A stretch of 64,000 nucleotides of DNA from an uncultured Candidatus Binatia bacterium (lineage in GTDB: Bacteria; Desulfobacterota; Binatia; DP-6): contig CAYOIZ010000032.1 of the NCBI GenBank assembly GCA_964404165.1, positions 5,573 through 69,572 of the forward strand. The letters are read 5' to 3'. The first letter of the stretch is position 1. Each line of letters opens with the position of its first letter. Shown here in pieces: positions 15,711-26,235 of this stretch. The position numbers were made by a program, and so were the translations under genes. The notes beneath the pieces are model-generated. The model was given only the letters and a program-made list of their open reading frames with translations, ran no database searches and was not told the origin of the DNA.

Positions 15711-16823
<1,113 letters not shown>

Positions 16824-16826
16824 CAC

Positions 16827-17978
16827 GTGGAGCTCGATGCGATCCTGCGAGAGGCCGTCGGTCGGCAGGCGTCGGACATTCATCTGAAGACGGGCGCTCC
16901 GCCCATCTTCCGCGTCAATGGCACCCTCACGAAGTGGGACGACGGGGGGGTCGTCGATCGCGACGCCATGGTGGCGCTCACGCAGCAGCTGCTCGACGAC
17001 TACCACGTCGGACGGCTGAAGCAGGACCTCCAGGTCGACGTGGGCTACGGCACACCCGACCTCGGCCGGTTCCGCGTGAACGTCTTCTATCAGCGCGGTA
17101 GCCTGCAGGCCGCGCTGCGTCTCATTCCAGCCCGCGTGCGGCGCGTCGGCGAGCTGCATCTGCCGCCCGTCATCGAGCGCATCGCGGAAGAGCATCGTGG
17201 GCTGGTGCTGGTCACGGGCACCACCGGCAGCGGGAAGTCCACCACGCTGGCGGCCATGATCGACCACATCAACCGCACGACCGACAAGCACATCATCACG
17301 GTCGAGGACCCCATCGAGTACCTGCACACCGACGACCTGTCGGTGATCACGCAGCGCGAGATCGGGGCCGACTGCCAGTCGTTCGCGGCTGGCCTGCGTG
17401 GTGCGCTGCGCCAGGACCCCGACGTCATCCTCGTCGGCGAAATGCGCGACCTGGAAACCATCGAGACGGCCATCCTCGCCGCCGAGACCGGCCACCTCGT
17501 CATGTCCACGGTACACACCCTCGACGCCACCGAAACCGTCACCCGCGTCATCTCGGCGTTCCCCGAGCATGCGCGCGGGCAGGCGCGGCTCATCCTGGCG
17601 AGCATCCTGAAGGGCGCCATCAGCCAGCGGCTCGTACCGCGCTCCGACGGCACCGGCATGGTGCCCGCCACCGAGGTGCTCGTCTCCACGGGGCTCGTGA
17701 AGGAGTGCATCCAGCAACAGGAGCGCACGCGCGAGCTGCGCGACGTCATCGCCCGCGGCTTCACCACCTACGGCATGCAGACGTTCGACCAGTCGCTCAT
17801 GGCGCTCTGGCGCGAGAACCTGATCACGTTCGAAGAGGCCATGGCGCAGGCCACCAACCCCGACGACTTCGCCCTGAAGGCACGGGGCATCTCCTCGACC
17901 AGCGACGCGCGCTGGGACGATTTCGATCATGACGAGACGTCGGACGCCGAGGAGTCGATCAAGGTCGACCGCTTCTGA
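16827..17978 (+). CDS. pilT: PilT/PilU family type IV pilus retraction ATPase
   Basis: ASDIHL, TGTTGSGKSTTLA, TVEDPIEY, ALRQDPDVILVGEMRD and GMQTFDQSL motifs. It lacks the AIRNLIRE helix. Confidence 0.92.
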   Translation: MELDAILREAVGRQASDIHLKTGAPPIFRVNGTLTKWDDGGVVDRDAMVALTQQLLDDYHVGRLKQDLQVDVGYGTPDLGRFRVNVFYQRGSLQAALRLIPARVRRVGELHLPPVIERIAEEHRGLVLVTGTTGSGKSTTLAAMIDHINRTTDKHIITVEDPIEYLHTDDLSVITQREIGADCQSFAAGLRGALRQDPDVILVGEMRDLETIETAILAAETGHLVMSTVHTLDATETVTRVISAFPEHARGQARLILASILKGAISQRLVPRSDGTGMVPATEVLVSTGLVKECIQQQERTRELRDVIARGFTTYGMQTFDQSLMALWRENLITFEEAMAQATNPDDFALKARGISSTSDARWDDFDHDETSDAEESIKVDRF

Positions 17979-18420
17979 CGCGCCCCGCCGCCCGGATCCC
18001 ACGCCGCTCGACGTCGCGGCGGGGATCCTGCGGCGGGCGGCGCGCACCGAGGCCGAGCTGGAGGCTCGGCTCACGGCGAAGGGCTACCAGCCGTCCACGG
18101 CGGAAGCCGCGGTGGCCCGCTGTCGCGACCTGGGCTGGGTGGGCGACGAGCGACTGGCGCTCGATCGGGCGCAATCGATGCGGCTCCGCGGCGCGGGTAG
18201 CCTCAAGATCGCCGCCGACCTCACCGGGCGCGGTCTGCCGGAATCGCTCGTCGATCGGGCGGTCGACGCATCGCTCGACGGACGCAGCGAGGCCGACTGG
18301 GCACGCGAGGCGCTCGAACGAGCCGCCGATCGCACCGGCCCCCGCGCGTGGCGTCTGCTCGCGTCGCGCGGCTTCCCCGAGGACGTCATCACCGACGTCC
18401 TCGGGGAGCTCGAGATCTGA
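17929..18420 (+). CDS. recX: Recombination regulator RecX (start uncertain)
   Basis: R-RTEAELEARL..KGY, GWVGDER, G..KI..DL..RG and L.SRGF three-helix repeats, downstream of recA. Confidence 0.82.
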   Translation: MTRRRTPRSRSRSTASDAPRRPDPTPLDVAAGILRRAARTEAELEARLTAKGYQPSTAEAAVARCRDLGWVGDERLALDRAQSMRLRGAGSLKIAADLTGRGLPESLVDRAVDASLDGRSEADWAREALERAADRTGPRAWRLLASRGFPEDVITDVLGELEI

Positions 18421-23582: not shown

Positions 23583-24968
23583 GTGCCTGGCATCGTCCGC
23601 TACGGAACCTACGTCCCCTATTTCCGGCTGACCCGCGCCGCCATCGGCGCGGGCAAGGGCGAACGCGCGGTCGCGAGCTTCGACGAGGACGCCGTGTCGC
23701 TCGCCGTCGAAGCGGGACGCGACGCCGTGCGCGGTGGTGTCGGCGTCGACACGCTGCTGTTCGCCACCACGAGCCCGCCGTACGCCGAGAAGCTCAACGC
23801 CGCCACCGTCCAGGCGGCGCTCGACCTCCCCGAGGACGTCACCTCGGTCGAGCTCGCCGGCTCGACCCGCATGGGGCTCGCGGCGCTGCTGCTCGGCATC
23901 GACCTGGCGGCGGCGGGGCGCCGCGCGCTGGTGTGTGCGGGCGACGTCGTCGTCGGTGCGCCCGGCGGCAGTCGCGAGAGCCAGGGCGGCGACGCCGGCG
24001 TCGCGTTCGTCACGGGCAGCGACGCCGAGTCGGTGGCGCGGCTCGTCGGCCGGGCGTCGGCGACGCTCGAGATCCTCGACGTCTGGCGGCTGCCCGACGA
24101 TCGCTTCGCCCGCAGCTGGGAGGAGCGCTTCACCGCCGAGTCGATGGCGCCGGCGATCATCGACGTGGCGAAGCGCGCCCTGACGGCGGCGGGTGTCGAG
24201 GCCGCGCAGCTCGCCACCGTCGTCCTCGACGGCACCAACCCGCGCGCCATGGCCGGGTTGCCGAAGGCCCTCGGTCTCAAGCCCGAGCAGCTCGCCGACC
24301 CGCTCGCGGCGTCGGTCGGTCGCGCCGGGGTCGCCCATGCCGGCCTGCTGCTGGCGCGCGCGCTCGACAAGGCGTCGCCGGGCGATCGCATCCTGGTGCT
24401 GTCCGCTGCGGACGGTGCCGACGCGCTCGTCTTCGAGGTCACGCCCGCCATTCGCGACATGCCGCCGGTGCGGCCCGTCGACCGCTGGATTGCGTCCAAG
24501 CGCAACGACCTGCCGTACAACACCTACCTCAAGTGGCGCGGCATCCTGCCGTTCGAGCCGCCGCGCCGGCCCGATCCGGAGCGCCCGGCGGCGCCGCCGA
24601 TGCGCCGGCACGAGCGCTGGAAGCTGGCGTTCGTGGGCTCACGCTGCACCGTCTGTCAGGCCGGGCACCTGCCGCCGCAGCGCGTGTGCGTGAAGTGCGG
24701 CGCCACCGACACGATGCGCGACGAGCGCTTCGCGGACACGTCGTGCCAGGTGGCGACGTACACGCTCGACCATCTGGCGTACTCGCTGCAGCCGCCGGTG
24801 GTGGCGGCGTTCGTCGACTACGAGGGCGGCGGCCGCTTCTCGTGCGAGCTCACCGACGTCGACCCCACGCAGGTCGCGATCGGGAACCACCTCGAGATGA
24901 CCTTCCGGCGGTTGTTCACGGCGCAGGGCGTGCACAACTACTTCTGGAAGGCCCGTCCGGGACGCTAG
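23583..24968 (+). CDS. HMG-CoA synthase-like domain fused to DUF35 Zn-ribbon/OB-fold domain
   Basis: GIVRYGTYVP...DEDAVSLAVEA (HMGCS fold) and C-terminal GSRCTVC...RVCVKC plus OB fold. Confidence 0.85.
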   Translation: MPGIVRYGTYVPYFRLTRAAIGAGKGERAVASFDEDAVSLAVEAGRDAVRGGVGVDTLLFATTSPPYAEKLNAATVQAALDLPEDVTSVELAGSTRMGLAALLLGIDLAAAGRRALVCAGDVVVGAPGGSRESQGGDAGVAFVTGSDAESVARLVGRASATLEILDVWRLPDDRFARSWEERFTAESMAPAIIDVAKRALTAAGVEAAQLATVVLDGTNPRAMAGLPKALGLKPEQLADPLAASVGRAGVAHAGLLLARALDKASPGDRILVLSAADGADALVFEVTPAIRDMPPVRPVDRWIASKRNDLPYNTYLKWRGILPFEPPRRPDPERPAAPPMRRHERWKLAFVGSRCTVCQAGHLPPQRVCVKCGATDTMRDERFADTSCQVATYTLDHLAYSLQPPVVAAFVDYEGGGRFSCELTDVDPTQVAIGNHLEMTFRRLFTAQGVHNYFWKARPGR

Positions 24969-24984
24969 GAAGAGAGGACACGTC

Positions 24985-26160
24985 ATGGCCAGCAACGGCA
25001 TCAAGGATCGCGTCGCCATCGTCGGCATGGGCTGCACCCCCTTCGGCGAGCACTGGGACAAGGGACCCGAAGACCTACTGGTCGACGCTGCCGGCGACGC
25101 CTATCGCTCGGCCGGCATCGAGCCCGATGCGGTCGACGCCTACTGGCTCGGCACCATGGGCAGCGGCGTGTCGGGCCTCATGCTCTCGGAAGCGCTCAAG
25201 CTGCCGTACAAGCCGGTGACGCGTCTCGAGAACATGTGCGCCACCGGCAGCGAGGCCATCCGCAACGCCGCCTACGCCGTCGCCAGCGGGGCCTACGATC
25301 TCGTGATGGCGATCGGGGTCGAGAAGTTGAAGGACTCGGGCTACTCGGGCCTCGTCATCTCGAACCCGCCGAACGACGGCACGCTCTCGAACATGACGGC
25401 GCCCGCGACGTTCTCGCTGCTCGCTCCGGCCTACGCTCGCAAGTACGGCGTCGACGAGGCGGAGCTGAAGCAGGTGCTGGCCCGCATCGCGTGGAAGAAC
25501 CACCGCAACGGCGCCAAGAACCCGAAGGCACAGTTCCAGAAGGAAGTGCCGATGGAGACGATCACGAAGTCGCCCTCGGTGGCCGGCATGCTCGGCATCT
25601 TCGACTGCTCGGGCGTCAGCGACGGCGCGGCCGCGGCGATCCTCTGCCGGGCCGAGGAGGCGCACAAGTACACGCAGCATCCGATCTTCCTGAAGGCGCT
25701 CGCCTTCGCCGCCGGTCCGGCCGCGGGCTACTACAGCCAGGAGTACGACTTCACGTCGTTCCCCGAGGTCGTCGCCAGCTCCGCCGACGCCTACAAGCAG
25801 GCGGGCGTCACCGATCCGCGCGACGAGATCAGCATGGCCGAGGTGCACGACTGCTTCACCCCGACCGAGCTGGTGCTGATGGAAGACATGGGCTTCTCGC
25901 CGCGCGGCCAGGGGTGGAAGGACGTGCTCGACGGCCGCTTCGACGGCGACGGTCCGCAGCCGGTGAACCCGGACGGCGGCCTCAAAAGCTTCGGACACCC
26001 GATCGGCGCCAGCGGGCTGCGCATGATGTACGAGATGTGGCTCCAGCTCCGCGGCGAGGCCGGTCCGCGCCAGATCAAGGATCCGAAGCTCGGGCTGACG
26101 CACAACCTGGGCGGCGCGCCCGGCCGCTGCGTCAGCTTCGTCTCGATCGTCGGCAACTGA
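24985..26160 (+). CDS. Thiolase family protein (SCP2/PhlC-like acetyl-CoA acyltransferase)
   Basis: AIVGMGCTPFG, ENMCATG, AEVHDCFT, NPDGGLKSFGHPIGASG and HNLGG motifs. Confidence 0.93.
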   Translation: MASNGIKDRVAIVGMGCTPFGEHWDKGPEDLLVDAAGDAYRSAGIEPDAVDAYWLGTMGSGVSGLMLSEALKLPYKPVTRLENMCATGSEAIRNAAYAVASGAYDLVMAIGVEKLKDSGYSGLVISNPPNDGTLSNMTAPATFSLLAPAYARKYGVDEAELKQVLARIAWKNHRNGAKNPKAQFQKEVPMETITKSPSVAGMLGIFDCSGVSDGAAAAILCRAEEAHKYTQHPIFLKALAFAAGPAAGYYSQEYDFTSFPEVVASSADAYKQAGVTDPRDEISMAEVHDCFTPTELVLMEDMGFSPRGQGWKDVLDGRFDGDGPQPVNPDGGLKSFGHPIGASGLRMMYEMWLQLRGEAGPRQIKDPKLGLTHNLGGAPGRCVSFVSIVGN

Positions 26161-26173
26161 GCCCGTACGCGAC

Positions 26174-26205
26174 GACGGGAGCCGGCACGAATGCCGGCCC
26201 CCGTC
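26174..26205. terminator. Hairpin between convergent genes (probable bidirectional terminator)
   Basis: GACGGGAGCCGGCA-CGAA-TGCCGGCCCCCGTC, a 14-bp stem with one mismatch. Confidence 0.55.
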
Positions 26206-26235
26206 GCGCGAGAGCGTCCGGACTCGGAACTGCGT

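Follow-up and report, generated by a model that had tools for sequence, protein, structure and literature searches.

A catalytically dead HMG-CoA synthase-DUF35 fusion paired with an intact thiolase in a Candidatus Binatia bacterium: a probable degradative 3-ketoacyl-CoA thiolase

We analysed a stretch of 64,000 nucleotides (the window) from contig CAYOIZ010000032.1 of an uncultured Candidatus Binatia bacterium (assembly GCA_964404165.1), which has a G+C content of ~71% and metagenome-assembled genomes (MAGs) of Candidatus Binatia as its closest database relatives. The subject of this analysis is a pair of co-oriented genes within the window, the first encoding a 3-hydroxy-3-methylglutaryl-CoA (HMG-CoA) synthase-like (HMGS-like) domain fused to a DUF35 module (P0001) and the second encoding a thiolase (P0002). 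Both open reading frames are present at exactly the coordinates given in Table 1, with a coding-type G+C content at third codon positions of 0.91-0.94, and the start of P0001 is supported by its 120 closest database homologues, being 80-96% identical and almost all 460-465 amino acids long. The two genes lie on the same strand and are probably co-transcribed, because the intergenic spacer comprises only 16 nt, within which a Shine-Dalgarno-like sequence precedes the ATG of the thiolase gene.

Residues 3-322 of P0001 match the archaeal HMG-CoA synthase family NF003274 of NCBIfam with 151 bits, below the cut-off of 244 bits, and the best match in the PDB is 6ESQ_I (92 bits), the HMGS of the Methanothermococcus thiolase/HMGS/DUF35 complex, followed by PhlA with 64-72 bits and MucA with 46 bits. 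An AlphaFold2 model built with 40 homologues (predicted local distance difference test, pLDDT, 92.7; predicted template modelling score, pTM, 0.93) gives the same ranking in a Foldseek search, with archaeal HMGS 6ET9_I as the best structure (TM score 0.86 on the target, rmsd 2.1 Å) and PhlA and then MucA ranking after it. Upon alignment of P0001 to 6ESQ_I, all four residues of the catalytic tetrad of archaeal HMGS, i.e. E82, C114, H238 and N270 in the numbering of PMC12960953, are found to be replaced, by T63, T95, D216 and R247, respectively. The register of this alignment is sound, since PhlA in the same HMMER output carries Cys, Gly and Gln in place of Glu, Cys and His, which agrees with the mut4 substitutions E82C/C114G/H238Q/N270D given in PMC12960953. 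At the three core sites none of 83 family members shows Glu, Cys or His, and the Asn site is occupied by Asn in 36, Arg in 26 and Gln in 15 of the 83 partner relatives. As judged from sequence, this confirms the HMGS-like domain of P0001 as catalytically dead, as had been proposed in an earlier reading of this DNA from the letters alone (the original prediction). That reading had taken the tripeptide AGS as the Cys motif, which is one residue off, the site being T95 and not S94; there is no Cys at either position. Invariant among the relatives are R96, E132 and D137 of the HMGS-like domain.

The HMGS-like domain is connected to the DUF35 module by a Pro/Arg-rich linker with nearly invariant positions E325, P327, R328, R329, P330, P332, P338 and R342. 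This linker is the best-conserved part of the fusion, yet it has the lowest confidence in the AlphaFold2 model (pLDDT 61-80), and it possibly takes on order only when packed against the thiolase. The DUF35 assignment of residues 350-442, comprising a zinc ribbon and an oligonucleotide/oligosaccharide-binding (OB) fold, is based on matches to Pfam and to PDB 6ESQ_E and 6OK1_B; the OB fold ends in an invariant NYFWK sequence. Both CxxC pairs of the zinc ribbon are present as predicted (C355/C358 and C369/C372), the four Cys being kept in 71/83 partner relatives. In 12 mostly actinomycetotal partners, from Acidimicrobiia, Microthrix, Poriferisodalis and related MAGs, all four are replaced, by Asp, Ser, Ser and Gly or Ser, and these Cys-less partners keep the remaining protein as well as the adjacent thiolase.

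The thiolase P0002 scores 616 bits against NCBIfam NF004810/PRK06157 ('acetyl-CoA acetyltransferase'), above the cut-off of 403 bits. Its best PDB matches are the archaeal or SCP2-type thiolases 4YZO, 7YVY and 6ESQ_A (201-205 bits), weaker matches being BbsB (144 bits), PhlC (112-116 bits), Ltp2 (76 bits) and MucB (75 bits); against the BbsB benzoylsuccinyl-CoA thiolase model NF053628 it reaches 142 bits, below the cut-off of 750 bits. Cys85, the HDCF motif with His288 and the GHP motif with His338 are matched by the same residues in the alignment to archaeal acetoacetyl-CoA thiolase 6ESQ_A, so the motifs Cys, HDC and GHP are retained in the adjacent thiolase as originally read, and they are conserved almost without exception among 75 relatives (Table 1).

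Table 1. Features of the gene pair and of related loci (positions refer to the window unless a contig is named; conservation counts refer to relatives of the respective protein).
Feature	Position	Strand	Basis or remark
Gene 1, P0001: HMG-CoA-synthase-like pseudoenzyme fused to DUF35, 461 aa, GTG start	23583-24968	+	ORF, translation
HMGS-like domain, residues 1-322	23583-24548	+	HMMER to 6ESQ_I, NF003274, Foldseek
Tetrad site Glu, replaced by T63 (gsESHPY vs atTSPPY)	23769-23771	+	HMMER alignment to 6ESQ_I
Tetrad site Cys, replaced by T95 (efaCkag vs agsTrmg)	23865-23867	+	HMMER alignment to 6ESQ_I
Tetrad site His, replaced by D216 (vfHqpN vs vlDgtN)	24228-24230	+	HMMER alignment to 6ESQ_I
Tetrad site Asn (lGNt), replaced by R247	24321-24323	+	HMMER alignment to 6ESQ_I
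Pro/Arg-rich linker, residues 323-349	24549-24629	+	conservation, AlphaFold2 model
DUF35 module: zinc ribbon residues 350-376, OB fold 377-461	24630-24965	+	Pfam PF12172, PF01796
Shine-Dalgarno-like GAGAGGA, 6 nt 5' of the thiolase ATG	24972-24978	+	read from sequence
Gene 2, P0002: SCP2/archaeal-type thiolase, 391 aa	24985-26160	+	NF004810 match, alignment to 6ESQ_A
Cys85	25237-25239	+	kept in 75/75 relatives
His288 of HDCF	25846-25848	+	kept in 75/75 relatives
His338 of GHP	25996-25998	+	kept in 73/75 relatives
GC-rich hairpin located 3' of the thiolase stop and before the end of a convergent minus-strand gene	26168-26210	.	RNA fold
HMG-CoA reductase	contig C2, 179996-181102	minus	
Classical thiolase	contig C2, 182601-183761	minus	
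Partners without zinc-ribbon Cys			loci L057, L059, L061, L070, L076, L078, L082, L083, L085, L087, L088 ('bacterium' only), L091

A pattern scan with one genome per species retrieved 497 partner relatives, of which the best 80 loci, to which the following locus counts refer, originate from Binatota, Myxococcota, Acidobacteriota, Gammaproteobacteria, Actinomycetota, Bacillota, Rokubacteria, Methylomirabilota and Chloroflexota, the pair spanning at least eight phyla. A P0002-like thiolase is encoded in 78/80 loci, in ~72 of these directly downstream of the partner on the same strand. The pair is the only conserved unit across the 80 loci, none of the window's other neighbouring genes recurring in them, and its orthogroup is often found as a stand-alone two-gene unit. 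Identity to the window copy ranges from 64-92% for the thiolase and from 41-82% for the partner, relatives from Pseudomonadales and Porticoccaceae MAGs showing 66-69% for the partner and 80-81% for the thiolase. Mean identities decrease from the thiolase (75%) over the linker (residues 321-349; 70%) and DUF35 (64%) to the HMGS-like domain (50%), rates which would fit a catalyst paired with a scaffold still under selection. A quick tree, from which we draw no conclusions on rooting or transfer, places the window thiolase inside a tight orthogroup of 72 members split from the genome's own paralogues (Shimodaira-Hasegawa-like approximate likelihood ratio test 99). In a sample from the same phylum the family is present in 40/121 genomes with only one close orthologue (56% identity), and this sample says little on core-gene status.

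In Actinomycetota and Bacillota the orthologous pair lies inside beta-oxidation gene sets, and beta-oxidation-type neighbours stand beside it in many loci of Acidimicrobiia. Genes recurring near the pair encode acyl-CoA ligases (22 loci), short-chain dehydrogenases/reductases (SDRs; 21), acyl-CoA dehydrogenases (ACADs; 18) and enoyl-CoA hydratases (ECHs; 9). The set of Oceanobacillus senegalensis runs from an ACAD, an ECH, a second ACAD, a citryl-CoA-lyase-like protein, a third ACAD, an SDR and two MaoC/HadAB-like hydratase subunits to the partner, which is followed by the thiolase, an acyl-CoA ligase, a tripartite ATP-independent periplasmic (TRAP) transporter and a CoA-transferase III. On plasmid pDK3 of Rhodococcus sp. 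DK17 the pair, annotated as 'OB-fold domain-containing protein' and 'acetyl-CoA acetyltransferase', adjoins a thiolase, an SDR and a crotonase, with an HMG-CoA lyase, an ACAD and CaiB encoded upstream. Neobacillus rhizophilus is a further culturable bacterium in which the pair occurs in operon form.

The genome from which the window originates encodes three further full-length fusions, 37-42% identical and with dead tetrads in all, giving four fusions in total, and exactly four of its thiolases exceed the NF004810 cut-off. Its overall thiolase complement is very large, comprising, in 6.8 Mb, 17 SCP2-type NF004810 matches (E <= 1e-20) plus 7 thiolases of the classical TIGR01930 type. One of the paralogous fusions, on contig C25 (38033-43400; locus L008, 6034-11408), has no adjacent thiolase and is located between a CoA-transferase III gene and genes for an ACAD, two MaoC hydratase subunits and an SDR, a bbs-like set. 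An orphan NF004810 thiolase on contig C13, encoded next to a carbamoyltransferase, could be the partner of this fusion. The C25 set is preceded by two DUF1329/LolA-like genes.

A separate mevalonate-entry cluster is present on the minus strand of contig C2 (~177.4-183.8 kb; locus L092, 175918-179424), encoding besides an HMG-CoA reductase and a classical thiolase an HMG-CoA synthase (HMGCS) of the bacterial type, in which Glu, Cys, His and Asn are intact (VGTETA, HACYGG, YHTPF and GNTYT). Entry into the mevalonate pathway therefore does not require the window pair, and we rejected a role in this pathway, the tetrad being lost in P0001 and an intact HMGCS/HMG-CoA reductase/thiolase cluster being present on C2. 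The names assigned by annotation pipelines, i.e. 'hydroxymethylglutaryl-CoA synthase' or 'OB-fold domain-containing protein' together with 'acetyl-CoA acetyltransferase', could wrongly suggest such a role, and the practical value of our finding lies in annotation. Directly beside the C2 HMGCS gene is a squalene-hopene-cyclase-like gene with QW-type repeats, and a second HMG-CoA reductase is encoded on contig C81.

The original prediction considered the function of such pairs in bacteria to be unknown, a statement that is out of date, as a fused form from Pseudomonas fluorescens (Pf) was assayed in 2026 and acts thiolytically. In that study 1,030 bacterial loci encoding HMGS, an acetyl-CoA acetyltransferase (ACAT) and DUF35 were mined, 1,001 of them without secondary-metabolism neighbours (PMC12960953; Nat Commun 2026;17:2196). 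PfACAT/HMGS-DUF35 contains a fused HMGS-DUF35 without the Glu-Cys-His-Asn tetrad and an ACAT keeping Cys, HDxF and GHx; the complex cleaves acetoacetyl-CoA thiolytically, produces neither HMG-CoA nor acetoacetyl-CoA from acetyl-CoA, and loses nearly all activity upon the exchange H294Y in the HDxF motif (PMC12960953). The standard acetoacetyl-CoA thiolysis, which the original prediction regarded as speaking against its own proposal, was thus observed for the Pf complex, not for the thiolase alone. The window pair shares with the Pf system the HMGS-DUF35 fusion, the lost tetrad, the adjacent thiolase with Cys, HDxF and GHx and the absence of neighbouring genes for polyketide synthases (PKS) or non-ribosomal peptide synthetases (NRPS), and differs in originating from an uncultured Binatia-like genome with four such fusions. 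It shows every feature of this class that can be read from sequence, as described for the Pf proteins (PMC12960953). It is an ordinary member of the class described biochemically in 2026 rather than a new kind of acyltransferase.

Taken together, we consider it quite probable that the two proteins form a heteromeric 3-ketoacyl-CoA thiolase acting in degradation, with P0001 as its non-catalytic scaffold. According to this model P0002 would be the only catalyst of the complex: a 3-ketoacyl-CoA would acylate Cys85, His288 of HDCF and His338 of GHP would carry out the acid/base and oxyanion work, and CoA would release the shortened acyl-CoA, resulting in thiolytic C-C cleavage. In the manner of HMGS and DUF35 of the archaeal complex, the HMGS-like domain and DUF35 of P0001 would associate with the thiolase, keeping it soluble and correctly shaped and helping to build the CoA/acyl pocket. 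We infer complex formation, the reaction direction in vivo and the substrate from these comparisons; the degradative direction is favoured because beta-oxidation is indicated by the genes that surround the orthologues and the C25 paralogue. Judging from these contexts, the substrate would most likely be a short, branched or carboxylated 3-oxoacyl-CoA originating from a beta-oxidation with an (R)-specific MaoC hydratase and an SDR. A comparable arrangement is found in the benzoylsuccinyl-CoA thiolase BbsAB of Geobacter metallireducens (7PXP), which also combines an HDxF SCP2-type thiolase with a DUF35 zinc-finger subunit and acts in a beta-oxidation-like pathway, the C25 paralogue being located in a bbs-like gene set; in contrast to P0001, BbsA has no HMGS-like domain.

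Several points weigh against this interpretation. The window locus itself has no beta-oxidation neighbours, the proposed substrate deriving solely from distant orthologues and the paralogue, and thiolases are reversible enzymes. That the Pf complex did not condense acetyl-CoA in vitro may simply be a matter of thermodynamics, and the kinship with the assayed Pf proteins would rest on shared described features.

A more specific version of the degradative model is that this slowly evolving orthogroup represents the dedicated thiolase of a widespread, so far undescribed (R)-specific beta-oxidation pathway for one small branched or dicarboxylic acyl-CoA, in which the dead HMGS, where R96, E132 and D137 are invariant and a conserved linker follows, might bind CoA or a second substrate instead of being an inert scaffold. 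We regard this as unlikely.

Rather unlikely is a biosynthetic condensing enzyme working in the Claisen direction and supplying acetoacetyl-CoA or longer ketoacyl-CoAs, for which the dead HMGS would provide a platform where downstream enzymes dock, as modelled on the archaeal complexes for fatty-acid synthesis (KT/DUF35) or for mevalonate entry. The reversibility of thiolases would permit it, and the closest solved relatives of both proteins belong to an archaeal biosynthetic complex. For each of the three modules, it is this complex that matches best in sequence and structure, and its thiolase has the same catalytic motifs; in the window, however, the HMGS is dead, HMGS and DUF35 are joined in one polypeptide, and the genes are unlinked to mevalonate genes. 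A precedent for the biosynthetic direction is the Sulfolobus KT/DUF35 pair, which joins a reductase and a dehydratase in a complex that synthesises fatty acids (bioRxiv 10.1101/2024.07.05.601840). Against such a role, the Pf complex formed no acetoacetyl-CoA from acetyl-CoA (PMC12960953), the genome has its own HMGCS/HMG-CoA reductase/classical thiolase cluster on C2, and the ACADs, acyl-CoA ligases, CoA-transferases and TRAP transporter encoded next to orthologues point to catabolism.

The original prediction saw in the pair a PhlABC-like system with a PhlC-like acyltransferase of non-standard chemistry. As to the architecture this holds: PhlABC of Pseudomonas protegens (5M3K/5MG5) and MucABC of Streptococcus macacae (9VBO) likewise combine an HMGS-like subunit that is inactive with DUF35 and with a catalytic subunit of thiolase fold carrying the nucleophilic Cys, and PhlA ranks second, in sequence as in structure, among the matches of the HMGS-like domain. 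The chemistry does not follow: a cofactor-independent C-acyltransferase acting on a phenolic or another carbon acceptor is very unlikely here, as the C-acyltransferases PhlC and MucB are reported to have lost the HDxF motif (PMC12960953), which is intact in P0002 with an invariant His, and as the thiolase reaches 201 bits to archaeal ACAT, but 112-116 bits with PhlC and 75 with MucB. The active site of PhlC has residues for the phenolic acceptor, for example Glu116, Asp137, His144, His56, Tyr124 and Trp211. PhlC and MucB are moreover encoded in PKS (type III, phl) or NRPS-PKS (muc) clusters, in contrast to the window pair, within ~8 kb on either side of which there is no type III PKS or NRPS/PKS gene. 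The Pf homologue behaves as a thiolase, unlike PpATase and SmaATase (PMC12960953).

The authors of the Pf study interpret their complex as an intermediate of evolution that no longer performs its primary role and was not recruited to a defined pathway (PMC12960953), and by analogy the window pair might be a left-over without specific function, its locus having no pathway neighbours. We consider this highly improbable. Across Binatota, Myxococcota, Acidobacteriota, Gammaproteobacteria, Actinomycetota, Bacillota and others, the thiolase orthogroup keeps an identity of 64-92%, the 120 closest homologues of the partner show the narrow range of identity given above, and the pair resides inside beta-oxidation operons in several phyla; such conservation implies a selected function, and being this strong across phyla it disfavours the view of an unrecruited intermediate. 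The window orthogroup shows far higher conservation than the label given to the Pf complex suggests, and its integration into beta-oxidation operons in other phyla is firmer as well. The comparative data thereby argue for a class of selected catabolic thiolase modules and against the functionless intermediate of the 2026 paper.

A retro-aldolase of the Ltp2/Sal type, i.e. a DUF35-bound thiolase-like enzyme cleaving 3-hydroxyacyl-CoA side chains, is barely credible: DUF35 partners are typical of Ltp2-ChsH2 and Sal-Shy and 6OK1 chains are among the PDB matches, but at the HDxF position, where the window thiolase has HDCF with its His conserved in 75/75 relatives, YDHF or YDCY is found in the steroid aldolases Ltp2 and Sal (PMC12329534), and Ltp2 itself scores only 76 bits to P0002.

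Regarding the surroundings of the pair, the 5' neighbouring genes encode NamZ and a phosphoesterase with a twin-arginine translocation (TAT) signal, and the 3' neighbours, on the other strand, encode a secreted Cys-rich protein and a beta-helix protein. We rejected an operon with the upstream TAT phosphoesterase gene, from which the pair is separated by a 43-nt gap, and likewise any connection with the secreted proteins encoded downstream, since not one of the genes concerned recurs in the 80 related loci. Scans for sigma-70 promoters and canonical terminators yielded nothing useful at the locus, and a consensus terminator scan did not call the hairpin 3' of the thiolase gene. This hairpin has a folding energy of -37 kcal/mol (z = -5.7, 0/200 shuffles as stable) and is likely the transcript end, though no U-tract follows it. 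Elsewhere in the window (15711-18420), a gene for a PilT-like T2SSE ATPase is located directly 3' of recA with a gap of 3 nt, as shown by Pfam matches.

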